From the NCBI GenBank assembly GCA_015065295.1, contig SVQN01000003.1, positions 1,735 to 65,734 of the forward strand: 64,000 nucleotides of DNA, read 5' to 3'. The notes under the pieces are model-generated. The model saw only the letters and a list, made by a program, of their open reading frames with translations. It was not told the origin of the DNA and made no database searches. The translations under genes were made by a program, and so were the position numbers. The stretch is from Oscillospiraceae bacterium. Its GTDB lineage: Bacteria; Bacillota; Clostridia; Oscillospirales; CAG-272. Below, one piece after another: positions 5,738 through 61,817 of this stretch; within the stretch, counting starts at the first letter, position 1, and each line of letters begins with the position of its first letter.

Positions 5738-6406
5738 GGGGAAACCTTTTTGAGGAAAAGGTTTCCCCAAACCCCTTCCAAAACCTTTTTAGGCGGCGGT
5801 AGCCGGTTAGTATAGTTGATATGATGGGGAGGGGGAAAGAAGAAAAACTCCGTGGAGTTCGGCTTAAGAGTGTTCGGCCCGTTGACGTGGGGATGGTTTG
5901 AAATTCTACGAAAATTGTTCTGGGGAAGTCAGGGACCGCCCCCCTGACTTCCCACGCCATTTTACGACTGCGCGATATAGTACGTCAATTTTGAATTCAG
6001 CTACGGTTCGTTGGTTTTCCGCGCGGCTTGGCTCGCCCGCCGTCCGCGCTTTGCGATCGTTCGGTTGGCTGACATACAGTTGTTTGACACAAAGCACGAA
6101 CGGCGACAGCCAAGGAGTGCGGGGGATGATAAAATGTAGCTGAATTCAAACGTGGCGCACTTCATCAATGTATCTCCATACGGCGTGGGAAGTCAGGGTC
6201 TTGGCGGAGCCTGACTTCCCCAAAACGATTTTCGTGGAATTTCAAACCAACGTCATGTCAGCGGATGGGATCAACGAAATGTCAGCGCAGATACCCAAGA
6301 AAATCCCCAGAAAAGAAAAAATCTGCAATAACCAAATGGCTATAACAGATCAAAGAGGTTTGGAGGGGAGTTTGAGGGGAACCTTTCCTCTGAAAAGGTT
6401 CCCCTC
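5738..6406. repeat. Foldback element family F3, copy A (inverted dimer tipped by H1 hairpins)
   Basis: The H1 hairpin+tail at 5738-5792 is mirrored at 6352-6406. Both arms carry the internal conserved blocks TTGGTTTGAAATTCTACGAAAAT and GGAAGTCAGG...CCTGACTTCC. The element is homologous to 22402-23089 and 34983-35640. Confidence 0.9.
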
Positions 6407-6437
6407 AAGAATTTCAACCGTACAATATTTGATAGAA

Positions 6438-7400
6438 TTACTGACCGAGAACAGCAGCACCGATGATGCCGGCGTCGTTGCCGAGCTTGGCGATGAGGAT
6501 CTGGGTCTGGGGAGTGCCTTCGCGGGAGTAGGTTTCGGACCATACTTTTTCGAGAAGGGGCTTCATGAGGTTGTCGCCTTCGTTGCAGACACCGCCGCCG
6601 ATGGAGAGAACGTTGGGCTGGAAGATGTTGATGACGTTGACGATACCGGTAGCGAGGTAGCTGATGTATTCGTCTACGACTTCTGCGCCGAGAGCGTCGC
6701 CGGCCTTCTGGGCATTGAACGCGGTGCGTGCGGAAACCTTGTCGAGGTCGCCGCCGATCATTTCTTCCATCATGGTTTCGCGGCCGGATTCACGGGCAGC
6801 GAGGATCGCGTCCTTGGTCATGTTAACGAGACCGGTTGCGGAGGAGTAAGCTTCCCAGCAGCCCTTTCTGCCGCAGGAGCACTGACGGCCGCCCTTTTCG
6901 ATAACGATGTGGCCGAGTTCCGCACCGGCGAAGTTGAAGCCGGAGTATACCTTGCCGTTGATAACGATACCGCCGCCGAGACCGGTGCCGAGGGTAATCA
7001 TAACGGAGTAGGGTGCGCCCTTCGCTACGCCTGCCATAGCTTCTGCCTTGGCTGCTGCGTTTGCGTCGTTTTCAATGTAGACCGGCTTGCCGTCGAGGAG
7101 AGCGGAGAGCTTGTCTGCGAGGGGGTACTGCAGGAAGGGGATGTTGTTTGCGTATTCAACAACGCCGGTTTCGTTGTTCGCGGTACCGGGGGTTGCTACG
7201 CCTGCGGATGCGATGTCATCCATCGTGATGCCCATTTCTGCGATGAGCTTGCGGGAGAGTGCCGCCATATCTTCTACGATCGCGTCTGCACCGCGTTCGG
7301 GCTTGGTGGGGGTGCTGCCCTTCTTAACGATTTCGAAGTCTTCGTTTACGATACCGATGGCGATGTTGGTTCCGCCAAGGTCTACGCCAATGTAATACAT
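6438..7400 (-). CDS. glcK: ROK-family glucokinase
   Basis: 320 aa with 'IGVDLGGTN', 'ENDANAAA' and the ROK zinc motif 'CSCGRKGCWEAY'. Confidence 0.9.
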   Translation of the reverse strand: MYYIGVDLGGTNIAIGIVNEDFEIVKKGSTPTKPERGADAIVEDMAALSRKLIAEMGITMDDIASAGVATPGTANNETGVVEYANNIPFLQYPLADKLSALLDGKPVYIENDANAAAKAEAMAGVAKGAPYSVMITLGTGLGGGIVINGKVYSGFNFAGAELGHIVIEKGGRQCSCGRKGCWEAYSSATGLVNMTKDAILAARESGRETMMEEMIGGDLDKVSARTAFNAQKAGDALGAEVVDEYISYLATGIVNVINIFQPNVLSIGGGVCNEGDNLMKPLLEKVWSETYSREGTPQTQILIAKLGNDAGIIGAAVLGQ

Positions 7401-7459
7401 AATTGATCCTGCCTTTACAGAAATTTCGTTTTTTCGGCGGAAACCGCCGTTTTGTTTAT

Positions 7460-7489
7460 ATTATATATGAAACGAGGTATTTTTGTCAA
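7460..7489 (-). promoter_or_regulatory. Putative sigma-A promoter of glcK
   Basis: On the minus strand: TTGACA-18 nt-TATAAT, ~60 nt upstream of the ATG. Confidence 0.45.
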
Positions 7490-7526: not shown

Positions 7527-8021
7527 GGAAGAAAAAAGTACCGGAACGGTACTTTTTTCAAAATTTTATGTCCCTGCGCGGGACGGCGCATAAGCGGAGT
7601 TCACGAAGTGAACTCCACCGGTCGCGGCCCTCTTATGAATCTCCCCGACCAGAGGAGGTTTCCTCTGGACTCCTCTCGTTCGTGGGACTCGGCCTTAGGG
7701 CCTCAGACAGACAGCGGTTTGCCCGCATTCAGATTGTTAGGAAGAGACAAGGTACTGTGCAAACTTGTCCAAATCGTTCGTTCACTACAAACAGCCGTGA
7801 AGTATAACTAAAAATTTAGGTTCCACCTTTTTGATAAACCATATTTCTGTTCTTCCGTGCGATTTGCTGGGTGCAAACTGCTGTCTGTCTGAGCCCTCAA
7901 GGGCGAGTCCCCCGAACGCCAAGCCGGGAATTCATAAAGGGGCGGCGATTGAGCCCCTTTATGCGCCGTCCCGCGCAGGGACATAAAATTGAAAAATGAC
8001 CGGAACGGTCATTTTTCTTCC
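7527..8021. repeat. Foldback element family F2, full inverted copy
   Basis: Terminal hairpins are GAAAAAAGTACCGGAACGGTACTTTTTTC (left) and GAAAAATGACCGGAACGGTCATTTTTC (right). The arms share ATGTCCCTGCGCGGGACGGCGCATAA...GGGACTCG.CCTT.AGGGC.TCAGACAGACAGC.GTTTGC in inverted orientation. Confidence 0.9.
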
Positions 8022-8029
8022 TTTCCGCC

Positions 8030-8058
8030 TTGCACTTTCCGTCATTTTATTGTAAAAT
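8030..8058 (+). promoter_or_regulatory. Putative promoter of the cysteine desulfurase gene
   Basis: TTGCAC-17 nt-TAAAAT, ~28 nt upstream of the TTG start. Confidence 0.4.
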
Positions 8059-8085
8059 ACTATATTATAATAAAAAGGAAGTGTT

Positions 8086-9204
8086 TTGTTGAAAACCTAC
8101 GCCGATTACGCGGCGACAACCCCACTCTCCGAGCGGGTGTTCGATACCCTCTGCCGAACCTCCCGCGAGGTCTTCGGCAATCCCTCGTCCGCGCATTCCT
8201 TCGGCAGGGATGCCGCCGATGTCGTTTCCCGCGCACGGGAACAGACCGCCGCCCTTCTCGGCTGCGATCCCGATGAAATCGTCTTTACCTCCGGCGGAAC
8301 CGAGGCGGACAACCATGCCCTCCGCTGTGCCGCAGGGATGCCGGTGCTTATCTCCGCCATCGAACATCCTGCCGTGCTGAACGCCGCGCGTGCAATGGCA
8401 TCCCGCGTGTATTTCGCGGAACCGGATTCCGACGGATGCGTTTCCGCAGAGGAGATCGCGCACATTCTTCGGGGTGCGCCGGAGATCGCAATGGTCTCTT
8501 TGATGTATGCAAACAACGAAACCGGCGTGATTCAGCCGGTACGGGAAGCTGCCGACGCTGCTCATGCCGCCGGTGCGCTGTTCCACTGTGACGCCGTACA
8601 GGGTACCGGTCATGTTATGCCGGACGTGCGGACGCTGGACTGTGATCTTCTGTCGGTGTCAGGACACAAATTCCATGCTCCCAAGGGGATCGGCGCGCTT
8701 TATGTGAACAGACGGATTGCCGGACGAATTCCTCCGTTTCATTACGGCGGCGGTCAGGAACATGGTCTGCGGAGCGGGACGCTGCCGGTGCCGCTCATTG
8801 CCGCGTTCGGGGAAGCCTGCGCGGAAGCTCTGGAACGCCGGGACGACGATGACCGGCGGATCCGCTGTCTGCGTGACCGGATGGCGGACGAGCTGCTGAC
8901 GATTCCGGGAAGCCGGCGGATCGGGCAGGGAAGGACGATGCCCGGGATTCTCAACATCGCCTTTGAAGGAACCTACGGGGAAAACCTGATGCTGCTGTGC
9001 GACCTGCGCGGCGTTTCGCTGTCCACCGGTTCGGCGTGTCATGCCGGAGACGATACGCCCTCCCATGTCCTGACAGCGATGCGTGTTCCGGAGGAATACC
9101 GGACGTCGTCTGTCCGTATTTCCATCGGCCGTTACACGACGGACGAGGAGGCGGAACGGATCACAGAGACCCTGCGCGACTGTGTTATGCTGGCACGGGG
9201 ATGA
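8086..9204 (+). CDS. Cysteine desulfurase (NifS/IscS class V aminotransferase)
   Basis: 372 aa with a TTG start after AAAGGAAG. The PLP-lysine motif is 'SVSGHKFHAPKGIGALYV' and the catalytic Cys loop is 'STGSACHAG'. Confidence 0.9.
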   Translation: MLKTYADYAATTPLSERVFDTLCRTSREVFGNPSSAHSFGRDAADVVSRAREQTAALLGCDPDEIVFTSGGTEADNHALRCAAGMPVLISAIEHPAVLNAARAMASRVYFAEPDSDGCVSAEEIAHILRGAPEIAMVSLMYANNETGVIQPVREAADAAHAAGALFHCDAVQGTGHVMPDVRTLDCDLLSVSGHKFHAPKGIGALYVNRRIAGRIPPFHYGGGQEHGLRSGTLPVPLIAAFGEACAEALERRDDDDRRIRCLRDRMADELLTIPGSRRIGQGRTMPGILNIAFEGTYGENLMLLCDLRGVSLSTGSACHAGDDTPSHVLTAMRVPEEYRTSSVRISIGRYTTDEEAERITETLRDCVMLARG

Positions 9205-9267
9205 GCGGCTTCCAATGGGCTATTCTGCCTATAAAAACGGTAGTTTATATCGGTTTTGGGTGGATTT

Positions 9268-9289
9268 TACGGGAAATTCCCGTTTTTGG
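9268..9289 (+). terminator. Probable intrinsic terminator after the desulfurase gene
   Basis: ACGGGAAATTCCCGT followed by TTTTGG. Confidence 0.5.
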
Positions 9290-9690
9290 AGTGTAAAATC
9301 CTAATTTTCTGAAAATTTGTGCATTGTGCTTATGTGTAGAAAAACAAGTTTGATTTTTGTTATATTTCAACAAAAACAGCGAGCTGCTTGTCACAGGGAG
9401 TTCACTCAGCTCTTATCCCCATTACAGATGTAACGGTAAATAATAATTACTTAATCACAGTTTATTCACAATAATGTCACTGAGATTGCTGAAAATAAAC
9501 ATCAAATGGTGGGTATATTATAAAATATATTCTATTATGGTAAATTATATTTACTTATAGGAACGTGAGAAAGTGTTAAAAACAGGAGGAGCAGGTTTCC
9601 ACAGGGAAATCCAAAGTTTTTCCACAGGAAGCGTTGGGAAAGTTGACTTTTTTGAACGGACAATTATTCCCGCGCGCTCTATCGTCGTGC

Positions 9691-9719
9691 TTGACATTTT
9701 TGTGCGCTTATGATATTAT
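9691..9719 (+). promoter_or_regulatory. Putative sigma-A promoter of the carbohydrate-uptake operon
   Basis: TTGACA (9691-9696), 17 nt, TATTAT (9714-9719). Confidence 0.5.
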
Positions 9720-10045
9720 AATGTCATATAAATATCGGGATTCGTGTATATTTTACGCTTCCCGGGAGATTTTTGCGGAGGAAAACACCTCCGCGGTCTC
9801 CGTATATATGTTTTTTTGACTCGATGACGCACTTCGCAATCCAATGTGACTGTGCGTCTATAGTTAGCGCGGTTTCATCGGGGTTTTGCCGTAAAAGGCT
9901 TTCACGGAGGGCTTTTACGGCAAAAACAACCTTATTCTGCGTTTGCTTGGGGTCGGGAGAACATAAGATTCCCCGAATCGGGTGGAGCCCTGCCGCCGTC
10001 GGTCAGCGGTCGGTCCGGCTCAAAAATTAGCAGGAGGAAGGTTAT
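9720..10045 (+). promoter_or_regulatory. Long (~320 nt) structured 5' leader of the operon
   Basis: Stable hairpins GCGGAGG-aaaaca-CCTCCGC (~9776-9796) and TTTGCCGTAAAAG-N-CTTTTACGGCAAA (~9883-9924), followed by a GC-rich stretch before the RBS AGGAGGAAGG. I do not recognise a riboswitch class. Confidence 0.35.
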
Positions 10046-13000
10046 ATGAGAAAAACCACATGCAAAAAGCTGACGTGCCTCGGTCTGTCGCTTCTTATGT
10101 GTTCCGGTGTGTTTCCGTCGCTGATATCGGCGGCTGATACGACCGAAAAGACTGAGAAGTCGGCACTTCAGGAAATCAGCGAATCCTTCAAATTCATCTC
10201 CTACGCTGAGTATAAAGAAAAATACGCAGATGTGGCGAGAGGAACCGATACGGTTAAGATTTCTGCTGTCGATTACAAGGCTGACGAAACCGACGCGGAC
10301 GTTAAGGTCGTATCCGACTATCAGGGCAAAAGCGGTAAGGCCCTCCAGATCCCCGACGCAGGTAAGGTAACCTGGGAATTCAACGTTCCCAAGGCAGGTA
10401 TGTATGCGGTAGCAGTTGACTTCTGCTCCGTTACCGACAAGACCACCTCGATCGAACGTACCCTTTACATCAACGGTACGGTTCCGTGTTCCGAAGCAAG
10501 ATACCTTCTCATGAAGAAGACCTGGCGGAACAACTACATTGACGGCCGTTTCGAAAAGGACTTCAACGGCAACGAACTCCGTCCTACCTCGTATGTTGAC
10601 CACCAGTGGGGTACCTACGAGTTCATCGACTCCAACACCTATTACGCAAATCCCTTCGAGTTCTACTTCGAAAAGGGCGTGAACACCCTGTCTCTCGAAG
10701 CAGTCCGTGAAGACGTGGTAATCAGCGAAATCCGTATTTATCCGTACGAAGACAACATCTCCTACGAAGAATATGTGAGCGGCAAGTCTGAAGCTGCTGC
10801 TGAACCGATCCACATCCACGCAGAACTCCCCTCGGCTACATCCGACTATACTGTATATCCGATTTATGACCGTAAATCTCCTATCACAGAACCGCAGGAT
10901 GCATCCAAGATCATGCTCAACACGATCGGTAGTGAAAAGTGGACCACGCCCGGTCAGTGGGTGGAATACGAATTTGAAGTAGCTTCCGCAGGCCTCTACG
11001 AAATCGTACTCCGTTACAGACAGAACGAACTTCCCGGTATGTATACCTCCAGAAAGATCTACATCGACGGGGAAATTCCGTTTGAAGAAGCAAACTACGC
11101 CAAGTTCAACTACGATACCGAATGGCAGGTCGAAGCCCTCAACAACGGCGCGGATACCTTCCAGTTCTACTTTGAACCCGGCGTTCATACCGTAAGACTT
11201 GAAGTTACCCTCGGTGAAATGGGTGACGTTGTACGTCAGGTTTCTGAAATCATGACCTCCGTCAACGACGACTACCTTGAAATCCTCAAGCTCACCGGTT
11301 CCAGCCCCGACTCTTACCGTGACTACGGTTTCGGCCGTGTTCTTCCGGACGTTGTTGAAGACCTCGTTCTCCAGCACCTCGCTCTCGAAGAAGTTATTGG
11401 TTATGTCGAAGGTATGGCAAACATCAAGTCCCAGAGCTCCGCAACGCTTGATACCATCTCCCGTCTCCTTCTCAAGATGGGTACCGATGAAGACGAAATC
11501 GCTCCGAACCTGACCGAACTCAAGTCTCAGGTTGGTACGCTCGGTGAATGGATCAACGACGTTAAGAAGCAGCCGATCGAAATCGACTATATCAACGTCC
11601 AGCCCGCTTCCGCTGAAAAGCCGAAGGCAAACGCCAACTTCTTCAGCGCACTGTGGTTTGAAATCAAGAGCTTCATCGCATCCTTCTTCACCGACTATAA
11701 CTCCCTCGGCGGTTCCGGCGAAGTAGACGCAAATGCAAGCTCCATCGAAGTATGGTATACCGGTGGTCGTGACCAGGCTCAGATCATCCGTAACCTCATG
11801 GACAACGACTTCATGCCCACGACCGGCATCAACGCAAACCTTAAGCTCGTTGCCGGCGGTACTCTTCTCCCGTCCGTTCTCGCAGGCGTTGGTCCGGAAG
11901 TTGCACTTCCCGGTACCGGTGCTGACCCGATCCAGTACGCGATCCGTTCCGCAGTTCTTGCGCTGAACCCCGAAGCTTACGCCGATCAGGAAGGCGACGA
12001 CGAAGAAACCAAGGCTTACAACGCGAAGATGCGCGAAGCACTCTCCACCTTCGACGATGTAACCTCCCGCTTCACCGAAGCTGCTATGATTCCGATCACG
12101 CTGTACGGCAAGACCTACGCGCTTCCCGACACGCAGACCTGGAACATGATGTTCTACCGTACCGACATCATTGCCGAACTCGGTATGGAAATCCCGGAAA
12201 CCTGGGATGACCTCCTTGCAATGATCCCGGTTCTCCAGTTCAACAACATGGAAATCGGTATGTCTCAGGACTACCAGATGTATATGTACCAGATGGGCGA
12301 AGAACTCTGGGCAGACGATGGTATGAGAATCAACCTCGACTCCAACCTCTCCCTCGAATCCTTCGAAACCATGTGTAACATGTTCACTCAGTATTCTCTC
12401 CCCGTAACCTACGACTTCGCAAACCGTTTCAGAACCGGTGAAATGCCGATCTGCATCCAGCCTTACACTTCCTACAACAACATCATCATCTTCGCAACCG
12501 AAATCGCGGGTCTTTGGGACTTCGGTCCGATCCCGGGCTTCCTCAAGGACGATGGTACTGTTGACAACACCTCCATGTCCTCCGTTACCGCTCTCGTTAT
12601 GATGGCAGGTACCGAAGACGTTGCAGCTGCATGGAAGTTCATGGACTGGTACACCGACTCCAAGTTCCAGGTTGACTACTCCAACGAACTCGTTGCACTC
12701 CTTGGTCCGGCTGCGAAGAACGCAACCGCAAACATGGCAGCTCTCGAAGAACTTCCGTGGACCTCTCACGAGTATGGTCAGCTCATGAAGCAGATGGATC
12801 ACACCGAAGCCGTCGTTGCTTACCCGGGCTCCTACATCCTTGCTCGTTACACCAACTTCGCATTCCTCGATGCATACAACAACAACGCAGACCCGGTTGA
12901 ATCGCTCCTTTCCTACATCAACACGATCAATAAGGAAATCACGAGAAAGAGAATCGAATTTGAACTCGAAACTCTTGAAATCGGTGAGACCCTCGCCTCC

Positions 13001-13216
13001 AAGCGTCTCGGTCAGGCTGCTGCCGCAATCGATGAACTTGACGATGCTGCCAAGTCTTCTGCTCCCGTTGCAGCAGTTACCGCAGCAATCGCAAGCGAAA
13101 ACATCGAAGAAATCCGGAGTGCCGCTTCCGGTCTGAATACCTCCGATGCAGTTATGGCTGAAATCGCAGGCTACCTCACCGATGCCGCAAACGCTCTTGA
13201 ATCGTACATCGATTGA
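10046..13216 (+). CDS. Giant extracellular solute-binding protein: signal peptide, two CBM6/35-like beta-sandwich repeats, then a family-1 ABC substrate-binding domain
   Basis: 1056 aa. The signal peptide is 'LSLLMCSGVFPSLISAAD'. Tandem repeats are 'VTWEFNVPKAGMYAVAVDF...RTLYINGT...ISEIRIY' and 'WVEYEFEVASAGLYEIVLRY...RKIYIDGE...HTVRLEV'. The C-terminal ~650 aa are SBP-like. Confidence 0.85.
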   Translation: MRKTTCKKLTCLGLSLLMCSGVFPSLISAADTTEKTEKSALQEISESFKFISYAEYKEKYADVARGTDTVKISAVDYKADETDADVKVVSDYQGKSGKALQIPDAGKVTWEFNVPKAGMYAVAVDFCSVTDKTTSIERTLYINGTVPCSEARYLLMKKTWRNNYIDGRFEKDFNGNELRPTSYVDHQWGTYEFIDSNTYYANPFEFYFEKGVNTLSLEAVREDVVISEIRIYPYEDNISYEEYVSGKSEAAAEPIHIHAELPSATSDYTVYPIYDRKSPITEPQDASKIMLNTIGSEKWTTPGQWVEYEFEVASAGLYEIVLRYRQNELPGMYTSRKIYIDGEIPFEEANYAKFNYDTEWQVEALNNGADTFQFYFEPGVHTVRLEVTLGEMGDVVRQVSEIMTSVNDDYLEILKLTGSSPDSYRDYGFGRVLPDVVEDLVLQHLALEEVIGYVEGMANIKSQSSATLDTISRLLLKMGTDEDEIAPNLTELKSQVGTLGEWINDVKKQPIEIDYINVQPASAEKPKANANFFSALWFEIKSFIASFFTDYNSLGGSGEVDANASSIEVWYTGGRDQAQIIRNLMDNDFMPTTGINANLKLVAGGTLLPSVLAGVGPEVALPGTGADPIQYAIRSAVLALNPEAYADQEGDDEETKAYNAKMREALSTFDDVTSRFTEAAMIPITLYGKTYALPDTQTWNMMFYRTDIIAELGMEIPETWDDLLAMIPVLQFNNMEIGMSQDYQMYMYQMGEELWADDGMRINLDSNLSLESFETMCNMFTQYSLPVTYDFANRFRTGEMPICIQPYTSYNNIIIFATEIAGLWDFGPIPGFLKDDGTVDNTSMSSVTALVMMAGTEDVAAAWKFMDWYTDSKFQVDYSNELVALLGPAAKNATANMAALEELPWTSHEYGQLMKQMDHTEAVVAYPGSYILARYTNFAFLDAYNNNADPVESLLSYINTINKEITRKRIEFELETLEIGETLASKRLGQAAAAIDELDDAAKSSAPVAAVTAAIASENIEEIRSAASGLNTSDAVMAEIAGYLTDAANALESYID

Positions 13217-13261
13217 TTTCCGGATTCATCTATTAAGAAAATCTAACAAAGGAGAGAGCAC

Positions 13262-14206: not shown

Positions 14207-14207
14207 T

Positions 14208-15083: not shown

Positions 15084-15093
15084 GGAGGAAAAC

Positions 15094-22386: not shown

Positions 22387-22401
22387 CTTTTTGTTTTTCT
22401 T

Positions 22402-23089
22402 GGGGGAACCTTTTTGAGGAAAAGGTTCCCCCAAACCCCTTCCAAAACCTTTTTAGGCGGTTGTTGCCGGTTTGTTTGGTTTATATGATGGGGAGGGGAA
22501 AAAGGAAAAAACTCCGTGGAGTACAGCTGAAATTTGTTAGACCTGTTGACATGGGGCTGGTTTGAATTTCTACGAAAATCGTTATGGGGAAGTCAGGCTC
22601 CGCCAAGACCCTGACTTCCCTCGCCATGCAGCGACTGCGCGATTTAATACGCCACGATTGAATTCAGCTACATTTTATTGGTTTTCCGCGCGGCTTGGCT
22701 CGCCCGCCGTCCGCGCTTTTCGTCAGTGAGAGCGGCTGACATACAGTTTTCTTCGAAAAGCACGAACGGCGTCAGCCAAGGAGTGCGGGGGATGACGATA
22801 TGTAGCTGAATTTTGACGTGACGCACTTCATCGATGTATCTCCATACGGCGTGGGAAGTCAGGGTTGGAGTTGCGAAGCAATCTCCTGCGGAGCCTGACT
22901 TCCCCAGAACGATTTTCATAGAATTTCAAACCAACGAAATGTCAGTGGATGGGATGCACAAAATGGCTACGCACAGACCCAAGAAAATCCCCCAGAAAAG
23001 AAAAAATCTGCACAGTTGAAATCACTGTAGCAGATGAAAAAGGTTTGGGAAGGGGTTTGGGGGAACCTTTTCCTCAAAAAGGTTCCCCC
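22402..23089. repeat. Foldback element family F3, copy B
   Basis: H1 tips lie at 22402-22456 and 23036-23089. It aligns along its whole length with copies A and C, and the right flank AAGAAAAAGAAACCCGCACTC is shared with copy C. Confidence 0.9.
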
Positions 23090-23114
23090 AAGAAAAAGAA
23101 ACCCGCACTCAACA

Positions 23115-24633: not shown

Positions 24634-24650
24634 GATGAAATAAAGTTTCT

Positions 24651-24706
24651 CGGGGAAACCTTTTATAGAAAAACGTTTTCCCCGAACCCCTTTCAAAAAA
24701 TTTTAG
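24651..24706 (+). repeat. H1 hairpin-plus-tail repeat
   Basis: CGGGGAAACCTTTT-atag-AAAAACGTTTTCCCCG followed by AACCCCTTTCAAAAAATTTTAG. Confidence 0.85.
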
Positions 24707-24724
24707 ACTATATGGAGAAATATA

Positions 24725-24780
24725 GGCTGTACAATCGGTTTGATATTCCCAGTTCCGCACCAAACCTTATCAATCCATAT
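24725..24780 (-). repeat. Module M4 (ATATGGATTGAYAAGGTT.GGTGC...), inverted partner of 25509-25562
   Basis: The reverse complement ATATGGATTGATAAGGTTTGGTGCGGAACTGGGAATATCAAACCGATTGTACAGCC aligns with 25509-25562. Confidence 0.75.
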
Positions 24781-24786
24781 CGTGTA

Positions 24787-24839
24787 AAAGTTTTTGAAAA
24801 GGGGTTTGGGGAGAAACTTTTTTCAAAAAGTTTCTCCCC
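24787..24839 (-). repeat. H1 hairpin-plus-tail repeat
   Basis: AAAAGTTTTTGAAAAGGGGTTT followed by GGGGAGAAACTTTTTTCAAAAAGTTTCTCCCC. Confidence 0.85.
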
Positions 24840-24850
24840 AATTGCCCCAA

Positions 24851-25420: not shown

Positions 25421-25448
25421 AGTAGTTCTTCCTTTCAATGTTTTTTCT

Positions 25449-25505
25449 CGGGGAGGGACTTTTTGAAAAAAGTCCCTCCCCGAACCCCTCTTCAAAAACT
25501 TTTAA
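25449..25505 (+). repeat. H1 hairpin-plus-tail repeat
   Basis: CGGGGAGGGACTTTTTGAAAAAAGTCCCTCCCCG followed by AACCCCTCTTCAAAAACTTTTA. Confidence 0.85.
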
Positions 25506-25508
25506 CCT

Positions 25509-25562
25509 ATATGGATTGACAAGGTTGGGTGCAGATTTAGGATACCAAACCGGCGATGAAGC
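25509..25562 (+). repeat. Module M4, inverted partner of 24725-24780
   Basis: ATATGGATTGACAAGGTTGGGTGCAGATTTAGGATACCAAACCGGCGATGAAGC. Confidence 0.75.
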
Positions 25563-25615
25563 TGACAAAATTATGTTCCTTCAAATTTGCACTTACTTTG
25601 TCATCCTAATTGTTT

Positions 25616-25666
25616 GAAGTTTTTTGGAAGGGGTTTGGGGAAACCTTTTTGCAAAAAGGTTTCCCC
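25616..25666 (-). repeat. H1 hairpin-plus-tail repeat (preceded by an F2-type fragment TTCAAATTTGCACTTACTTTGTC)
   Basis: GAAGTTTTTTGGAAGGGGTTT followed by GGGGAAACCTTTTTGCAAAAAGGTTTCCCC. Confidence 0.85.
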
Positions 25667-25678
25667 AATAAATCCCCA

Positions 25679-27406: not shown

Positions 27407-27420
27407 TTTTTGGGGTATAT

Positions 27421-27486
27421 GCGAGGGAAACTGAGATTCGTTCCACGAACTCAGTTTCCCTCGCGCTCCTTTCAAAACCTTTTTAG
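27421..27486 (+). repeat. H1 variant (different stem, conserved tail) in the iorA 5' UTR
   Basis: GCGAGGGAAACTGAG-N13-CTCAGTTTCCCTCGC followed by GCTCCTTTCAAAACCTTTTTAG. Confidence 0.75.
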
Positions 27487-27547
27487 GCTGATATAAGAAT
27501 AAAATCTGCTTGTGTTTGATGTTTCGGATTCTATTGCTTTACCCTAT

Positions 27548-30865: not shown

Positions 30866-31225
30866 TTCAAACTGTTCGTTTGAATTGATTAGGAAGAAAA
30901 ATGACCGTTCCGGTCATTTTTCAATTTTATGTCCCTACGCGGGACGGCGCACAAAGGGGCTCAGTCGCCGCCCCTTTGTGAATTCCCGGCTTGGCGTTCG
31001 GGGGACTCGCCCTTAAGGGCTCGGACAGACAGCGGTTTGCCCGCATTCAGACTTTTAGGAAGAAACGAGGTTTGGGTGCAAATCTGTCCAAATCGTACGT
31101 TCAGTAGAAACAGCCGTGGAGTGTTCTTCAAATTTGCACTTGCTTTGTCTGTCTTTTTCAGATGGAAGCTTTTTGAAAGGGGTTCGGGGAAAACTTTTTC
31201 TCGAAAAAGTTTTCCCCGAGGACTT
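30866..31225. repeat. F2 partial foldback plus H1 hairpin, filling the rplI-dnaB spacer
   Basis: CAAACTGTTCGTTTG, the terminal hairpin GAAAAATGACCGTTCCGGTCATTTTTC, and ATGTCCCTACGCGGGACGGCGCACAAAGGGGC...GGACAGACAGCGGTTTGC...GCACTTGCTTTGTCTGTC, followed by H1 at 31165-31220. Confidence 0.9.
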
Positions 31226-34842: not shown

Positions 34843-34982
34843 TTCCGCACCTCCCTTGCTTTTCCATCGGCATACTTTTTCCATTTTAGTTTACTTCTTA
34901 TTATACCATATTTGCGGGAAGATATCTACGGGTACATGAAAAATTTACATCATGGGGGTGAGGTGGATTCTTGGGGAAACCT

Positions 34983-35640
34983 TTTTGAGGAAAAGGTTTC
35001 CCCAAACCCCTTCCAAAACCTTTTTAATCGGTTGTTGCCGGTTTGTTTGGCTGATATGATGGGGAGGGGGCTTTTTGAAATATACCGTGGAGTTCGGCTG
35101 AAATTTGTTAGACCTGTTGACATGGGGTTGGTTTGAATCTCTACGAAAATCGTTTTGGGGAAGTCAGGCTCCGCCAAGACCCTGACTTCCCACGCCATGT
35201 TGCGACTGCATGATATAGTACGCCACGATTGAATTCAGCTACGGTTTATTGGGTTTCCGCGCGTCTTGGCTCGCCCGCCGTCCGCGCTTTGCGTTCGTTT
35301 GGTCGGCTGACATACAGTCTTCTTTGAAAAGCACGAACGGCGTCAGCCAAGGAGTGCGGGGGATGACGGTATGTAGCTGAATTTTGACGTGACGCACTTC
35401 ATTAACGTATCCCTTCCGGCAACGGAAGTCAGGGTCTTGGCGGAGCCTGACTTCCCCGTTATAATTTTCGTAGAATTTCAAACCAACATCATGTCAGCGG
35501 ATGGGATCAACCAAATGGCTACGCACAGACCCATGAAAATCCCCCTCCAAACAAAAAATCTGCACATCCTATATTTGATAGCAGATGAAAAAGGTTTTGG
35601 AAGGGGTTTGGGGGAACCTTTTCCTCAAAAAGGTTCCCCC
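34983..35640. repeat. Foldback element family F3, copy C
   Basis: H1 tips lie at 34983-35036 and 35587-35640. It aligns with copy B over the full length. Confidence 0.9.
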
Positions 35641-35727
35641 AAGAAAAAGAAACCCGCACTCTCTTGATTTTCCCCGCCAACTATGATAAACTAATACCGA
35701 CAAAACATCCCACGAAAGGAAAAGAAC

Positions 35728-41842: not shown

Positions 41843-41886
41843 AAAAAAACCTCCAATCTGAAATATACCCTATTATACAACAGATT

Positions 41887-41942
41887 GAAGTTTTTTGAAA
41901 GGGGTTCGGGGAAAACTTTTTCGAAAAAAAGTTTTCCCCGAG
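41887..41942 (-). repeat. H1 hairpin-plus-tail repeat
   Basis: GAAGTTTTTTGAAAGGGGTT followed by CGGGGAAAACTTTTTCGAAAAAAAGTTTTCCCCGAG. Confidence 0.85.
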
Positions 41943-41961
41943 AAACTATATTTTATAAAAT

Positions 41962-42782: not shown

Positions 42783-43154
42783 CCAAACTGTTCGTTTGGA
42801 TTAATAGGTAGAAAAATGACCGGAACGGTCATTTTTCAATTTTTATGTCCTACGCGGACGGCGCACAAAGGGGCTCAAACGCCGCCCCTTTGTGAATTGC
42901 TGGCTTGGAAATCGTTCGGGGGACTCGGCCTTAGGGCCTCGGACAGACAGCGGTTTGCACGCGGCAGACCGTTCGGAAGGGACAAGGTTTGGGTGCAGAG
43001 CTGTCCAAAACGGTCGTTCAGTAGAAACAGCCGTGGAGTGTGGCGTTGTTTTTACTTTTTTCTTTCGATCTGCACTCGCTTTGTCTGTCCTTTTTATTAA
43101 AAAGGTTTTTGGAGGGGTGCGGGGAACCTTTTTCCTTAAAAAAGGTTCCCCGCG
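42783..43154. repeat. F2 partial foldback plus H1 hairpin, filling the pgk-tpiA spacer
   Basis: Same module order as 30866-31225: CAAACTGTTCGTTTG, GAAAAATGACCGGAACGGTCATTTTTC, ...GGACAGACAGCGGTTTGCAC...GCACTCGCTTTGTCTGTCC, then H1 at 43098-43154. Confidence 0.9.
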
Positions 43155-43171
43155 AAAATATCATTAATTAA

Positions 43172-49193: not shown

Positions 49194-49210
49194 ATGAGAT
49201 GAAGTTTTTC

Positions 49211-49270
49211 GTGGGGAGAACCTTTTTGAGGAAAAGGTTCTCCCCACACCCCACTCCAAAACCTTTTTGG
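49211..49270 (+). repeat. H1 hairpin-plus-tail repeat
   Basis: GTGGGGAGAACCTTTTTGAGGAAAAGGTTCTCCCCAC followed by ACCCCACTCCAAAACCTTTTTGG. Confidence 0.85.
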
Positions 49271-49308
49271 AGAAGGAATTTTGACAGGGAAAGTGCAGAG
49301 TTATTATA

Positions 49309-52670: not shown

Positions 52671-52855
52671 CGGTTGTTCTTTATATCCTGTATGTTTTGA
52701 TTTTATTTTATTCCTTTAATTATTATAGCATCCCCCTGCGGAAAAGTCAATCGAATCTGTATGTTTTATACTTGACAAATTTACTTGTGTAGTGTATAAT
52801 GAAGAAAAAATGACATTCGCAAAACGTAAAATATAGAACAAAGGAGGAAATGGAT

Positions 52856-55150
52856 ATGAAAAACTTCCGCAATCGGATGACGCTGCTGTTTTGTGCGGCG
52901 ATGCTGGGGATGGTTTCATGTACGAACGGGACACCTGCGGAACCGAGTGCCGCAGCAGAAACAACAGAAACGTTGGAAACTGCGCCGGTTCTCACAAATG
53001 TATTTCTCGGAACGGAGTATTCGCTTTCCGAAGGATGGACGGCGAACGGCAGAGTGAAGCCGTATTATAATCCGTCAGACCATACGCTGACCCTGCTGTG
53101 CGAGCGGAAAGGGGAGACGGTTCTCGCCGTACTGGAGGAATCCGGAAAAGTTGTCCGGGAAACGGTGGTCGGGCTGGAGGAAGATGTCCTGCTGAGTCTG
53201 ACCGGCGGATTGATTACGGAAGAAGGATTGTATTATATCCGTTCGCAGTTCAACGGGCAGAAGCAGGCAGCCGAAACCTACGCAGGAATGTACCGTCCGG
53301 ACAGCGGAACGGTGACGGTTTCCGAAGAAATTTCGTCGATGTTCACGACGGCGCAGGGGTATTTCTCGGTCAGCGGCATGGCAGCGGACAGGGACGGCGG
53401 ACTGTACCTTATCTATAACTCCGAAATCGTGGTTTTGGATGAACATCTCCGGTTCGATTTCAACATTGCTGCGGACGACTGGATCGAGGAACTGATCCTT
53501 TCGCCGGACGGAACGGTGTACGCGCGGGACTTCCGTTCGCTGATGGAAATCGACCGTGCGGCGAAAATGTTCGGAGACAGCCGGAATCTGCCCGGCGGAT
53601 TTGACGCGAAGCAGTACCTGTTCGGCGAGGGTTATGACCTGTATTATTCCGGAACGGCCGGATTGTACGGATATGATTTTGCGTCCGGCGAAAAAACGCT
53701 GGTGATGGATTATCTGAATTCCAGCTTGATCGCTGACAATCTGACGATTGCGGCGGTTCCGTCGCCGGACTGTGTTCTTCTGTACGATGGGTACGGGGAA
53801 ACTCCTGCGGTCTATCGCCGGACGGAGGATATTGACCTTTCGCAGACGACGCTTCTGGAAATTGCGTTCGTTCACGAGGACAGCGGATTGAATGCCGCCG
53901 TGGTAGAGTTCAACCGGACGCATCCCGATATCCGGGCGGTGGTGCGGAATTACGGGGTTTACATGACCTCGGAAGACCCGACCGGCGGGGAACGGCGGCT
54001 TATCAATGACCTGCTGAACGGGCTGTATCAGCCGGATATCGTTGCCGGATGGGGACTGTACGACCAGGTTCTGCTGGAAATTTATGAAAACGGGCTGTAT
54101 ACCGATCTGTACCCGCTGATGGAAGCGGATGAGGATTCACCGGTGAAAAAGGACGATCTGCTGAACAGTGTCCGTCGGATGTTCGAGTCGGAAAACGGCG
54201 AGTTGATGGGAATCGCAGGCAGTATGCGGGTGACAACGGTGAGCGCGAAGACGGAAATTGTCGGGGACAACGTGTGCTGGACGCTTCCGGAGCTGCTCGA
54301 TGTGGCGGAAAATCTGCCCGAAGGAAGCCGGCTGCTGCGGGAACTGGCACAGGAAAATGCAGCACAGTATTTGCTTGGAAACGGCGGGTACGATACGTTT
54401 GTGGATTTTGAAACCGGGACATGCCGGTTTGAGAGTGAGGATTTTCTGCGGTATCTGGAGTTTCTGAAAACGCTTCCCGCGTCGTATTCGGAAGCACTTG
54501 CGGCGTTCGGATCGGATCGCGGTATATTGGCACAGGCTTATCACGATGGAACGCTGGTGCTGAACACGGAATATTTCATGAACGGCGATATCGTGCCGAC
54601 GTGGATGTTGGGATACGGACGGTTCGGTACGGACGAAATCGTGCGGATCGGGTATGCTTCGCCGGAGGATACGGTCGGAAATGCGACGATTCTGCTGAGT
54701 CCGTATGTGATGACCTCGTACTGCGACTGTTCGGAAGAAGCATGGGATTTTCTTTCGGCGATCGTTGAAAAGGAAGTGCGCGATAAATTGGAAGGAATTC
54801 CGGTATTGCGGTCGGTTCTGAAGGAACGGTGTGTGTTCTACGACGGGATGTGGTTTGAACTGTACACGGACGGAAGTATGGATATGTTCGGGCAGAAGAT
54901 GAATTACGATCCCGGACGGACGCTGCCGAAACCGGGGATTGCTGTACCGTTCACGGAAGAAACGGCGGAGGAAATTGTCGGGTGGTTCGATGATGCGATC
55001 GGTCTGCCGGTGCGGGATCATGCGGACAGCGAGGTGTCCGGCATCGTGAACGAAGAAATCACGGCGTATCTGGCCGGAACGAAGTCAGCGGCAGACTGTG
55101 CAAGGGTGATCCAGTCGCGCGTGTCGGTCTGGCTGGCGGAACATCAGTGA
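52856..55150 (+). CDS. Large lipoprotein, paralogue 1: N-terminal propeller-like domain plus C-terminal family-1 solute-binding-like domain
   Basis: 764 aa from the second ATG (AGGAGG lies 8 nt upstream). The lipobox is 'LGMVSC'. It is homologous along its full length to 55389-57749 (e.g. 'LTNVF.GT', 'VKPYYN', 'GLYGY.FA', 'YRR.EDIDLSQ', 'AADCAR.IQSRVS.WL.EH'). Confidence 0.8.
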   Translation: MKNFRNRMTLLFCAAMLGMVSCTNGTPAEPSAAAETTETLETAPVLTNVFLGTEYSLSEGWTANGRVKPYYNPSDHTLTLLCERKGETVLAVLEESGKVVRETVVGLEEDVLLSLTGGLITEEGLYYIRSQFNGQKQAAETYAGMYRPDSGTVTVSEEISSMFTTAQGYFSVSGMAADRDGGLYLIYNSEIVVLDEHLRFDFNIAADDWIEELILSPDGTVYARDFRSLMEIDRAAKMFGDSRNLPGGFDAKQYLFGEGYDLYYSGTAGLYGYDFASGEKTLVMDYLNSSLIADNLTIAAVPSPDCVLLYDGYGETPAVYRRTEDIDLSQTTLLEIAFVHEDSGLNAAVVEFNRTHPDIRAVVRNYGVYMTSEDPTGGERRLINDLLNGLYQPDIVAGWGLYDQVLLEIYENGLYTDLYPLMEADEDSPVKKDDLLNSVRRMFESENGELMGIAGSMRVTTVSAKTEIVGDNVCWTLPELLDVAENLPEGSRLLRELAQENAAQYLLGNGGYDTFVDFETGTCRFESEDFLRYLEFLKTLPASYSEALAAFGSDRGILAQAYHDGTLVLNTEYFMNGDIVPTWMLGYGRFGTDEIVRIGYASPEDTVGNATILLSPYVMTSYCDCSEEAWDFLSAIVEKEVRDKLEGIPVLRSVLKERCVFYDGMWFELYTDGSMDMFGQKMNYDPGRTLPKPGIAVPFTEETAEEIVGWFDDAIGLPVRDHADSEVSGIVNEEITAYLAGTKSAADCARVIQSRVSVWLAEHQ

Positions 55151-59913: not shown

Positions 59914-59926
59914 GGGGGATGACATC

Positions 59927-61756
59927 ATGGATGAAAACACAACGAAAATCACACATCTGAAACTGTTCGGGCTTCCGAAGCTCCTGCCGCATCTGAAGCC
60001 CCACGCGCCGATGATGATTGGAATGATCCTGCTCGGCATTGCCGGATCGGTGGTGGACATCATTTTCCCGAAGTATCAGGAATATGCGATCAACCACTTT
60101 ATCGGCGGAAATACGCTCGACACGATTGTCCCGTTCACGGTGACATACCTGCTGTTTCTGATTATGAAAATCATTTTTGACATGAACAGCACCTATATGT
60201 CGTCCAAGATCGAGATGTACATCGGGCGCGACCTCAAGAAAAAATCGTTCGACCACCTCCAGACGCTGTCGTTCTCGTACTTCAACCGGAACAGCGTCGG
60301 GTACGTTCACGCGCGCGTCATGAGCGATACGGGGCGTATCGGAACGCTTGTTTCGTGGTATCTGATGGACTGCGTGTGGAATATCACCTACATGGTCGGC
60401 GCGCTGGCGGTCATGCTCCGGACGAACTGGAAGCTGACGCTGATTGTGCTGGTCGTCATTCCGATTGTATCGGCGATTGTTGCGCTGATGCAGAAGAAGC
60501 TGACCGACGCGAACCGGCAGATCCGCGAGATGAATTCGAAGATCACGGGCAGCTTCAACGAAGGCATCACCGGCGCGAAAACGGTGAAAACGCTCGTGAC
60601 GGAAGACAAAATGTACAACCGGTTCACGGAGGAAACCTCCGGCATGAAGCGGGTATCCGTGGCGGAATCCCGGTACCGCGGAATTCTGTGGACCTCGCTG
60701 ACGGCGGCTTCGTACATTGCGCTCGCGCTGGTTCTCTATCGCGGCGGCATTCTGAACGTGGAAGGCGTGATGGCTCTCGGTACGCTGTCGCTGTTCATGT
60801 CCTATGCCATGGGCATCATGCAGCCGATCCGATGGATCGTGAACAGCCTGTCGCAGCTCATCACGGTGCAGGTCAACATCGAACGTCTGACGGGGCTTCT
60901 GGAAACCGCGTCGGATGTGGCGGATTCGGAGGAAGTTATTGCAAAATACGGCGATATGTTCGAGCCGAAGCGGGAAAACTGGGAAGAACTGTCCGGCGAC
61001 ATCGAATTTGAAAACGTATCGTTCAAGTATCCGGACGGGGACGAATACGTCCTGCGCGACTTCAATCTGAAAATTCCGCACGGGACGAACGTGGCGATTG
61101 TCGGAGAAACGGGCGCGGGAAAATCGACGCTCGTGAATCTGGTCTGCCGGTTTTTCGAGCCGACCTCCGGACGATTGCTGATCGACGGACGGGATGCAAG
61201 GGAGCGTTCCCAGCTCTGGCTGCACTCGAACATCGGGTACGTCCTCCAGACGCCGCATCTGTTCTCCGGAACGATCCGCGACAACCTGAAATACGGTGCG
61301 CCGGACGCGACGGATGAAGAAATCATGGCGGCACTGGAAACCGTATCGGCGGCGGGGATCGTCAAAAAGAGCGAAAAGGGGCTGGACACCGAAGTCGGGG
61401 AAGGCGGCGACCTGCTTTCGACCGGGGAAAAGCAGCTGATTTCGTTCGCGCGGGCGATTTTATGTCAGCCGAAGATTCTGGTGCTGGACGAAGCAACCTC
61501 GTCGATTGACACGTTCACGGAGCAGCTGATCCAGAACGCGATCGAAAAGGTGATCGAGGGACGGACGACGTTCATGATCGCGCACCGGTTATCGACGGTG
61601 CGGAATGCGGATATTATTCTGGTTGTACGCGACGGCGTGATCGTGGAATCCGGCACCCACCGGGAACTGATTGCGAAAAAGGGCTATTACCACAGCCTGT
61701 ACACCAGACAGTACGAACGCGAAGCAACGGATTCCGCCTTTGCGGAGATGAAATAA
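59927..61756 (+). CDS. ABC exporter, fused permease/ATPase, partner subunit (MdlB/TM288-like)
   Basis: 609 aa from the ATG at 59927 (AAGGGGGA RBS). Walker A 'GETGAGKST', non-canonical signature 'LSTGEKQL', Walker B 'ILVLDEATSSID'. Confidence 0.88.
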   Translation: MDENTTKITHLKLFGLPKLLPHLKPHAPMMIGMILLGIAGSVVDIIFPKYQEYAINHFIGGNTLDTIVPFTVTYLLFLIMKIIFDMNSTYMSSKIEMYIGRDLKKKSFDHLQTLSFSYFNRNSVGYVHARVMSDTGRIGTLVSWYLMDCVWNITYMVGALAVMLRTNWKLTLIVLVVIPIVSAIVALMQKKLTDANRQIREMNSKITGSFNEGITGAKTVKTLVTEDKMYNRFTEETSGMKRVSVAESRYRGILWTSLTAASYIALALVLYRGGILNVEGVMALGTLSLFMSYAMGIMQPIRWIVNSLSQLITVQVNIERLTGLLETASDVADSEEVIAKYGDMFEPKRENWEELSGDIEFENVSFKYPDGDEYVLRDFNLKIPHGTNVAIVGETGAGKSTLVNLVCRFFEPTSGRLLIDGRDARERSQLWLHSNIGYVLQTPHLFSGTIRDNLKYGAPDATDEEIMAALETVSAAGIVKKSEKGLDTEVGEGGDLLSTGEKQLISFARAILCQPKILVLDEATSSIDTFTEQLIQNAIEKVIEGRTTFMIAHRLSTVRNADIILVVRDGVIVESGTHRELIAKKGYYHSLYTRQYEREATDSAFAEMK

Positions 61757-61764
61757 GAGACATT

Positions 61765-61817
61765 GGGGGAAACTTTTTTTCAAAAAAGTTTCCCCCAAAC
61801 CCCTTTCAAAAAACTTC
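61765..61817 (+). repeat. H1 hairpin-plus-tail repeat
   Basis: GGGGGAAACTTTTTTTCAAAAAAGTTTCCCCC followed by AAACCCCTTTCAAAAAACTTC. Confidence 0.85.

Follow-up and report, generated by a model that had tools for sequence, protein, structure and literature searches.

A dispersed hairpin repeat of gut Clostridia whose tail mirrors its own stem, a candidate for an intramolecular triple helix

Introduction

BoxC, PIT elements and TM_ECO are names for the same dispersed intergenic repeats of Escherichia coli and other Proteobacteria (Hoyne et al., 2000; Holder et al., 2015, PMC4666352). They consist of a hairpin and a mirror third block over a loop of 3 nucleotides (nt), and a single strand of them forms a stable triplex in vitro (PMC4666352). 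They occur solo or as inverted pairs that always join two types and are tied to locus variability, without a link to known mobile elements and with no promoter, terminator or other function demonstrated (PMC4666352). Here we describe a family of structured repeats, H1, found in 64 kilobases (kb) of DNA from an Oscillospiraceae bacterium (assembly GCA_015065295.1, contig SVQN01000003.1, positions 1,735 to 65,734; GC content 53%). This whole stretch is called the window, and coordinates are counted from its first letter. Each H1 unit carries a hairpin followed by a tail which, read 5′ to 3′, is the same-direction complement of the 5′ half of the hairpin, that is, the mirror of its 3′ arm.

Such an arrangement recalls what is known of intrastrand triplexes. 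In class III, a purine arm is followed by a loop, a pyrimidine arm, a 3-nt linker and the third strand, class I being found on the other strand (Holder et al., 2015, PMC4666352). Alternate-strand triplexes are established in vitro, T.CG and G.TA triples are likewise documented (works cited in PMC2532714), and C.C-G and U.C-G triples, with a pyrimidine of the Hoogsteen strand at C-G pairs, have been described (PMC7583470). Published triplex searches admitted loops of 1-6 nt in ITxF and of 0-10 nt in Hoyne et al. The copies of BoxC/TM_ECO, being nearly identical, give no evolutionary read-out on a role in the cell, which has been a question since the 1990s.

The H1 Unit and the Sample

The copies listed in an initial annotation of the window served as seed for a profile hidden Markov model (searched with nhmmer) and for a covariance model, both of which were run over the 64 kb. 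The profile found 16 full units, one copy per 4 kb, and the covariance model, whose building the annotation had proposed, found the same 16. The remaining matches in the window were reverse-strand matches to the palindromic hairpins, and neither model found a further full copy there. All copies that had been listed are present in their orientations, and the coordinates stood except for 34983-35036, misregistered by about 13 nt (the unit spans 34964-35032, with the hairpin from 34970). The length of about 55 base pairs (bp) had been set too short: by the covariance model the unit measures about 69 nt (65-70 bases), of which TTTCTY, rich in T, forms the leader and the conserved WAWCTG follows the tail.

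The order of the module is leader, hairpin of 15-17 bp, linker of 1-3 nt, tail and WAWCTG, and its consensus is (TC)GGGGAAAAC-T5-6-loop-A5-6-GTTTTCCCC(GA)-A-CCCCTTTCAAAAAAC. From foot to apex, the hairpin is made up of two closing pairs, G4-6, A2-5, C1-3, T4-7 and a small loop. A wider set, formed by the window and about 100 loci of GTDB genomes retrieved by the tail pattern, gave 124 distinct copies, the number of GTDB matches being a lower bound. Loci outside the window are designated by L numbers, and the taxon labels of their contigs and metagenome-assembled genomes (MAGs) are those of the submitters.

A Tail That Follows Its Own Hairpin

In 122 distinct copies from many genomes, every 5′ half was aligned with every tail, and own pairs were compared with permuted pairs under four possible relations. 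Positive scores were obtained for the parallel complement only, with a mean of 16.8 for own pairs versus 13.1 for permuted ones (z=12.2; 0/2000 permutations, among copies that are mutually related). Own and permuted means were negative for the direct repeat of the 5′ half (z=-2.5), for its mirror (z=2.2) and for its reverse complement, i.e., the inverted relation (z=1.6). The signal of the parallel complement is found within the window copies alone (z 4.3-4.5), as well as with one representative for each of 30 arm types, where the mean edit distance to the predicted tail is 1.40 versus 2.48 in permuted pairs (z -8.2, 0/20000).

The correspondence can be followed base by base. From arm to tail, A goes to T in 480 of 611 cases, G to C in 569 of 670, and T to A in 614 of 716. 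The C or CC at the junction between purine block and T-run maps to C, with a count that agrees in arm and tail (rho 0.94), and C in the apical stem maps to G. The T-run of the tail follows the A-run of the arm (rho 0.72), and the A-run of the tail follows the T-run of the arm (rho 0.60) much more than it does the arm's A-run (rho 0.24). Each block of the tail co-varies separately with its block of the hairpin, and even the three apical nucleotides co-vary with the tail (z=7.4); a CGAG loop, for instance, goes with GCT in the tail. Matched arms and tails include GGGGAAAAC-T6-G with CCCCTTT-C-A6-C, GGGGAAACC with CCCCTTCC, GGGGAAAAAC with CCCCTTTTC, GAGGGGAACC with CTCCCCTCC, and GGGGGGAAAC-T7 with CCCCCCTTC-A7. 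The polarity is fixed by matches that are not homopolymers, such as GAGGGG/CTCCCC, GGGAGGGGAAAC/CCCTCCCCTTC and, at the apex, CTTTCG/GAAAGC.

The same relation is visible when orthologous copies are compared. The copy between pgk and tpiA differs from its orthologue in the relative L189 in the 5′ arm, the 3′ arm and the tail together. Likewise, both arms and the tail differ together between the orthologous copies of L013 and L036, whose flanking proteins are 54-97% identical, and between those of L025 and L083 (flanking proteins 64-99% identical).

The tail had been taken in the initial annotation as preserved at the sequence level and as a mimic of the 5′ arm. The first description is too simple and the second fails: the tail co-varies with its own hairpin, and as a direct repeat it agrees, over its whole length, with its own 5′ half no better than with those of other copies. 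The match noticed by eye between ACC-type arms and AACC tails turns out to be a side effect of the parallel-complement rule, and copies that had been set aside as exceptions, such as that at 25616, obey it.

Two other descriptions of the tail were tried and rejected. As a direct repeat of the 3′ arm it fits far worse (edit distance 5.6 vs 1.4). A Watson-Crick pseudoknot of the tail (UUUCAAAAAA) with the T-run of the arm and the loop fails on two counts: the base after the A-run of the tail complements the first base of the loop and not the junction C, and TTCC tails are retained by ACC arms with GAAA loops, so that the tail tracks the arm and has no Watson-Crick partner in the loop.

Stability and Covariation of the Hairpin

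With RNA parameters, a single hairpin dominates the predicted fold of each copy, at -22 to -37 kcal/mol, copy 24651 being weaker (-14). Stems are perfect in 96 of the 124 distinct copies, with a median of 16 paired positions and 86 distinct strings for the 5′ arm. The compensatory changes reported earlier are borne out in a model-based alignment of 150 copies: both sides change at 11 of 15 pairs, and there are 151 doubly changed cells versus 59+-6.8 in shuffled alignments (0/500), variation in stem length shifting the register and inflating the cells counted as unpaired. The mismatches comprise 19 of the G.T type versus 27 of the A.C type; the sense strand thus has no surplus of G.U pairs, which speaks against a constraint acting on RNA alone.

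Nevertheless, covariation between the arms alone is no proof of selection, as a templated mutation can alter both arms of a palindrome at once. This limit is drawn from a wholesale replacement of the apex between two strains that are 97.7% identical. The copy upstream of iorA has the apex TTTTTAAGGAAAA in L006 (16264-16326) and an unrelated 22-nt palindrome, TGAGATTCGTTCCACGAACTCA, in the window (27414-27491), with foot and tail unaltered. The window carries the derived apex, because L189 retains the L006 form.

Distribution, Gain and Loss

The hosts of H1 form an Oscillospiraceae/Ruminococcaceae-like clade of gut Clostridia that are uncultured, and copies turn up sporadically in other phyla. 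Most of the GTDB matches listed come from Clostridia MAGs of herbivore and human guts, often at contig ends. Among the matches listed, well-formed units obeying the rule also appear in a 1.1-Mb Thermoguttaceae contig, in two Thermodesulfobacteriota MAGs and in Desulfovibrionaceae and Defluviitaleaceae MAGs, and the GC content of H1-bearing genomes ranges from 38 to 61%. Proteins of the window match JGI and ENA metagenome-assembly contigs; for the protein encoded at 52850-55150 no database record was found. Relatives of the window DnaB show 83-98% identity, and those that are named are labeled Clostridia, Eubacteriales or Ruminococcaceae/Oscillospiraceae bacteria.

In more distant relatives, H1 gave 0 copies in 964 kb, corresponding to 80 contigs with DnaB at most 61% identical, which excludes a chance origin of the copies. 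That DnaB metagenome scan returned only relatives at or below 61% identity, and it is usable as a negative control and unfit for insertion boundaries. H1 has 2 matches in IMG/VR and none in the plasmid collection PLSDB or the phage collection INPHARED. Rfam yields only tRNAs in the window at the gathering score and only generic sub-threshold hairpin matches at E<=5, and a search of a literature library for H1 sequence strings found no match.

Among close relatives, copy number was followed over the syntenic region GdpP-rplI-dnaB-dxs-iorAB. The window species holds 12 H1 copies there. L195 (DnaB 96% identical) holds 10, partly at other sites, and L196 (95%) has 5-6, one of them after GdpP, where the window is empty; its iorA-iorB element lies in the opposite orientation and has different flanks from that of the window. 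L189 (94%) has two strong copies, and no H1 is present in L197 (94%) or in L190-L192 (83-87%). Gains and losses of H1 take place over times like those in which species diverge; together with the scattered phyletic distribution, they indicate mobility. At the filled and empty sites of iorA-iorB, GdpP-rplI and DUF2232-GdpP no target-site duplication was found, where diverged flanks could hide one of 2 nt. Neither a RAYT or IS200/IS605 gene nor a GTAG-type motif was seen in the 64-kb window and the collected loci.

A hairpin resembling that of H1 (AGGGGCGC-TTTTTGAAAAA-GCGCCCCT) lies directly past a stop codon in L017 (4285-4330), without a mirror tail, and the orthologous site is filled in L082. 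This could be a relative lacking the tail or a forerunner of the H1 module.

From a practical point of view, H1 lies densely in gut Clostridia that are uncultured and abundant, and it breaks metagenome assemblies, since many of its matches sit at contig ends. It also reshapes intercistronic regions, sometimes replacing the native ribosome-binding site (RBS), and its masking or annotation would be advisable in the genomes of these gut Clostridia.

Elements and Gene Context

Small foldback elements, either of about 136-260 bp or of about 690 bp, have H1 as their outer end, and it is also found as solo or truncated units. All 16 window copies are intergenic, according to gene calls on the matching JGI and ENA contigs. 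The elements occupy the gap from a stop codon to the next RBS, with the hairpin starting typically 5-20 nt after the stop; H1 elements land in this gap, or survive only there, with the hairpin outermost. In truly solo copies the RBS of the next gene comes straight after WAWCTG, and some copies that appear solo are truncated pairs or are fused to another repeat of 235 nt.

The three large elements of the window, E1 (5729-6413), E2 (22393-23098) and E3 (34964-35649), are about 690 bp long, with a mean column identity of about 84%, and have H1 as terminal inverted repeats. The left unit of E1 (5729..5797, + strand, 82.8 bits) has its foot about 20 nt past the stop of a gene of 487 amino acids. 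The right one (6345..6413, - strand, 56.3 bits), which shows the GAGGGGAACC arm and the CTCCCCTCC tail, comes after the stop of a ROK gene on the - strand. E2 starts with a unit (22393..22461, +, 84.8 bits) directly after the canonical terminator of an ABC permease gene and ends with another (23030..23098, -, 82.1 bits) after the stop of a 313-amino-acid gene. The ends of E3 score 83.8 bits (34964..35032, +) and 83 bits (35581..35649, -). Further inverted repeats lie inside E1-E3 (e.g., 5879-5940 with 6203-6264). An open reading frame (ORF) of 83 amino acids, with no Pfam match, is called by JGI in E2, and a left end of the E type is present in MAG RGIG1778 (L022, around 1836).

The iorB-methylase and iorA-iorB gaps are each filled by a paired element, of about 205 and 233 bp respectively. 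In the first (24643-24847), the unit 24643..24712 (+) is antisense, with its foot 18 nt upstream of the start of an rRNA methylase gene, and the hairpin of 24779..24847 (-) lies 12 nt past the iorB stop in sense. In the second (25442-25674), a unit of the GGGGAGGGAC type (25442..25510, +) precedes the iorB RBS, and one of the GGGGAAACC type with a GC loop (25608..25674, -) lies 13 nt past the iorA stop, at a site that is empty in L189, L190 and L197. Paired elements of 136-259 bp recur in other MAGs with a conserved internal palindrome, TGACAAAG..GTGCAGATTTG. They are heterotypic, with unlike hairpins at their left and right ends.

A further unit (27414..27491, +, 39.6 bits), which is the one with the swapped apex, lies antisense in the 5′ untranslated region of iorA and has orthologues in L006, L189 and L195. 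Two units in sense are fused to a 235-nt repeat: one is 13 nt past the rplI stop (31157..31225, -; repeat at 30890-31124, upstream of dnaB), and the other, fused in the window, is 18 nt past the pgk stop (43092..43160, -; repeat at 42805-43041). Solo units are found 20 nt past the tpiA stop, in sense (41879..41947, -), 18 nt past the stop of an M16/PreP-type peptidase gene and before a ribonuclease gene (49204..49274, +), and 9 nt past the stop of an ABC transporter gene (61757..61825, +), where the RBS of a pyroglutamyl peptidase gene comes directly after the unit.

Among 88 solo copies, 29 have the foot of the hairpin no more than 40 nt from a gene end, in sense, and 12 have it equally near a gene start, whereas the tail side comes that near to a gene of any kind in only 13, distances for all 88 being based on approximate gene calls. 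In the window, five of the six solo copies follow a stop in sense orientation. Solo copies change orientation with gene strand, although the GC skew is positive throughout 24 to 64 kb; their orientation is therefore tied to transcription or gene polarity and not to replication. As to the skew itself, it is about -0.12 at 8000-24000, a segment with an ABC sugar-uptake operon, and positive elsewhere in the window; the negative stretch may be due to an inversion or to DNA of foreign origin.

Several downstream genes have GAGAAA(C), the leader's reverse complement, at their Shine-Dalgarno position. At several genes the foot of the hairpin is 10-18 nt from the start codon (24633-24650 in the window, around 7030 in L195 and around 15308-15340 in L196), and the GAGAAA(C) of the element is there the only sequence resembling a Shine-Dalgarno. 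In L196 the conserved RBS of iorB, GAAAGGAA, is missing after insertion.

Promoter-like matches are enriched at 24-44 kb (19 vs 8.7+-3.1 expected), several of them in or beside H1 elements. Inward-facing TTGACA/TTGTCA boxes lie inside the iorA-iorB paired element (25410-25568), and a promoter-like TTCAAA-16-TATAAT (41872-41899) for the next gene starts in the tail of the copy after tpiA, which it overlaps.

The family of repeats of about 235 nt, also found inverted at 7677-8037, is fused to the tail side of the H1 copies that follow rplI and pgk. Its end is a hairpin, GAAAAATGACCGGAACGGTCATTTTTC, that resembles a canonical bidirectional terminator and immediately precedes the RBS of dnaB and tpiA; the repeat is absent between pgk and tpiA in L189. 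Another inverted repeat, without H1, lies at 45734-46050 upstream of the M16 peptidase gene, with arms of 150 nt that are 87% complementary and 17 nt apart. The DUF5696-GH35 gap (37506-37690) holds a long GC-rich inverted repeat (GTAGGGAGCGGCGCCCCCGTCGCTCCGTC ...), a site where L195 has an H1 pair instead and strain L006 an extra ORF of 123 amino acids. Finally, the window begins with the end of a gene for a TraG/TrwB-type coupling protein, and short-period coding repeats of 12 and 15 nt (49494-49589, 51163-51324), unrelated to H1, are found in the ribonuclease-domain gene and the neighboring ORF.

Discussion

We know of no copying process that yields parallel complements, and to our knowledge mirror symmetry brings no advantage to a protein that binds duplex DNA. 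The one structural logic known to us that predicts such a mirror rule is that of a triple helix whose third strand reads the purine of each pair, and it is on this ground that a triplex is proposed. On balance, we lean towards the view that H1 is the terminal module of small, non-coding and proliferating foldback repeats, in the style of BoxC and of miniature inverted-repeat transposable elements (MITEs), in which the fold adopted by the tail is a triplex under selection.

According to this proposal, in single-stranded DNA the tail would fold back into the major groove of its own hairpin and read the purine of each base pair, giving an alternate-strand intramolecular triple helix. On the G-rich strand this would consist of G.GC and A.AT triples followed by T.AT, a combination independent of pH and requiring no protonation, and on the C-rich strand of C+.GC and T.AT triples followed by A.AT. 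With the purine on the 5′ arm (GGGGAAAA), a third strand of pyrimidines running parallel to it would give C+.GC and T.AT; with the purine on the 3′ arm, in the A-run, the same strand is antiparallel to that run and would give A.AT and G.GC triples of the purine motif. The fold would be what selection retains, most likely as the substrate for a trans-acting machinery that copies or moves the element and, as a second possibility, as a structure that stalls polymerases.

The blocks that such a fold demands are present: a purine block, its Watson-Crick complement and a third block that obeys Hoogsteen and reverse-Hoogsteen rules with the correct polarity. The pyrimidine arm is separated from the third strand by a 3-nt loop, and the purine block from the pyrimidine block by about 20 nt, which form a further A/T helix. 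As this distance exceeds the loop limits of the published triplex searches, those are likely to have missed H1. A broader claim, which we regard as possible though less likely than not, is that H1 is the first family for which comparison among copies, through three-way covariation in dozens of variants and several phyla, reveals selection maintaining an intramolecular DNA triple helix, one that would be bipartite, alternate-strand and recognized by a mobilizing or copying system that places the elements between stop and RBS. Covariation across variants is the type of argument by which RNA structures were established, and the diverse H1 copies constitute natural "compensatory mutants" for biophysics.

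Several points weigh against the triplex proposal. The step from a rule about the tail's letters to a triplex fold is one that we infer from sequence, and the word "mobile" takes its warrant from patterns of presence and absence. In length, the tail consistently falls 1 nt short of the purine block. Covariation also extends to the closing pairs (TC/GA, TT/AA, GC/GC), which, if formed, leave a linker of only 1 nt. Since the copies are mutually related, the permutation p-values are inflated. No recurrent protein family and no transposase were found beside H1 in about 690 kb of loci; nor was there an autonomous element, as inverted H1 pairs up to 6 kb apart in the loci included no H1-bounded coding element of 1-3 kb, and no ORF was repeated beside H1. 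Four consecutive C+.GC triples are unfavorable at neutral pH (PMC7583470), so the G-rich strand is the sole comfortable triplex candidate. In E. coli, dimethyl sulfate footprinting in vivo detected no triplex at TM_ECO (PMC4666352).

To these must be added one of the main rivals of a selected triplex, ectopic gene conversion of whole units, by which a matched arm and tail could be carried jointly from site to site and inherited together. It would still need an origin for each of the approximately 30 matched variants.

Another explanation places the function at the RNA level. A hairpin after the stop would shield the upstream cistron from 3′ exonucleases or mark a processing site, as E. coli REP sequences do, and thereby tune operon expression; a U.A-U/C+.G-C triplex with the CCCCUUU tail might add to it. 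The preference of solo copies for the sense orientation after stops (29 vs 12 at <=40 nt, and 5/6 in the window), the flip of orientation with gene strand under positive skew at 24-64 kb and the great stability of the hairpins are what such an element would lead one to expect. Furthermore, the sense strand has the purine-pyrimidine-pyrimidine order, the sole triplex type known in RNA (PMC4666352). Nevertheless, the sense bias can also be explained by selection against the half that would disturb an RBS, many copies are in antisense or, as at E1-E3, have convergent or divergent genes on their two sides, and the sites are not conserved among close relatives. The sense strand shows no tolerance of G.U pairs. 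Besides, the A-run block of the tail and the apical stem co-vary too, which would require purine-motif triples, reported not to form in RNA (PMC4666352), and two or more consecutive C+.GC triples destabilize RNA triplexes in cells (PMC7583470). Taken together, we find this explanation unlikely, although it is one of the main rivals.

Less probable still, though it overlaps with the explanation that we prefer, is a substrate of the REP/REPIN or IS200/IS605 kind, in which a Y1 (HUH) transposase or RAYT would bind the hairpin in trans on single-stranded DNA. Tail and leader would then serve for cleavage or as guides, and the mirror rule would be a by-product. Hairpin ends without target duplication, inverted doublets resembling REPINs, conserved motifs outside the hairpin (TTTCTY upstream, WAWCTG downstream) and left and right hairpins that differ, as left and right transposon ends do, all agree with it. 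On the other side, no Y1 transposase or recurrent protein family accompanies the copies in the roughly 690 kb of loci, there is no GTAG-type tetranucleotide, and orientation tracks transcription and not the inferred direction of replication. Guide interactions of the IS200/IS605 type involve about 4 nt, against a parallel complement of about 20 nt in H1. Among the roles put forward in the initial annotation, that of a REP/BIME-like unit mobilized in trans nonetheless comes closest in spirit to our results, because close relatives differ in which copies they have and the elements showed no coding capacity. Its wider description of a dispersed, structured repeat that is not a terminator, lying inside operons and at the tips of foldbacks, is supported.

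The initial annotation had also suggested two mutually exclusive hairpins, the 3′ arm pairing either with the 5′ arm or with the tail, as in an RNA switch. The last part of the tail (AAAACCTTTTT) does resemble the 5′ arm in copies of the ACC/GAGG subtype, where the alternative helix reaches -6 to -9 kcal/mol. However, it attains only -0.2 to -3 kcal/mol in most subtypes, and the main hairpin is 17-30 kcal/mol more stable. In addition, the direct-repeat relation is not specific to the own copy (z=-2.5), and the A-run of the tail tracks the T-run of the arm far better than its A-run. A switch is accordingly very improbable. Just as hard to sustain is an intrinsic terminator, ordinary or unusual: a GC-rich hairpin does begin 5-20 nt past stops, but no U-tract follows it in either orientation, as noticed from the outset, a terminator scan found H1 not terminator-like and terminator-like sites not enriched, the genome does possess canonical terminators (e.g., directly ahead of E2 and at 30896-30922), many of the copies lie within operons or in antisense, and PIT/TM_ECO elements are without terminator activity (PMC4666352).

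Comparison with Known Repeat Systems

H1 differs from IS200/IS605 elements in the lack of a replication-strand bias, and no TnpA or TnpB gene was seen in the window or the loci. MITEs such as Correia/NEMIS, ERIC, RUP and Bcr1 offer another comparison. Like them, H1 elements are short, non-coding foldbacks with long terminal inverted repeats; they are adjacent to genes and co-transcribed with their neighbors, with possible promoter-like boxes (TTGACA in the paired elements). However, they have no target-site duplication, no cognate insertion sequence with the same ends was found in the loci, and every terminal repeat forms a hairpin of its own, followed by the cognate mirror tail, left and right hairpins being different.

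With REP/BIME and REPIN sequences, H1 has in common that it is palindromic, intergenic, often operon-internal, solo or in inverted doublets, and present at high copy number in some genomes and absent in close relatives, without target duplication. REP sequences are recognized by a GTAG-like tetranucleotide 5′ of an imperfect palindrome; in H1, by contrast, the 5′ flank is TTTCTY. Moreover, no RAYT was seen in the window and loci, and the mirror tail is without counterpart in REP.

The closest likeness is to BoxC/PIT/TM_ECO. H1 is also a dispersed intergenic repeat of a few tens of nucleotides, with a hairpin and a third block mirroring an arm over a 3-nt loop, and its two strands would be, as judged from their composition, one purine-motif and one pyrimidine-motif triplex candidate. 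It is multi-copy, strictly intergenic and found solo or as inverted heterotypic pairs, without a link to known transposons, phages or plasmids and at loci that vary among close relatives. Unlike TM_ECO, it lacks the pattern CCCTCNCCC-N3-6-GGGNGAGGG-N3-GGGNGAGGG and any sequence similarity, and its third strand adjoins the pyrimidine arm (class III/I versus class II/IV). The stem of H1 is mixed, G/A and then T, so that the third strand must switch strands (bipartite), and about 20 nt separate its purine and pyrimidine blocks. Besides, H1 forms the ends of foldback elements of 136-700 bp, its hosts are gut Clostridia, and its copies are diverse with three-way covariation, whereas those of TM_ECO are nearly identical. 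H1 is thus best described as a new and diverse family of the BoxC/PIT kind, and not as a member of TM_ECO.

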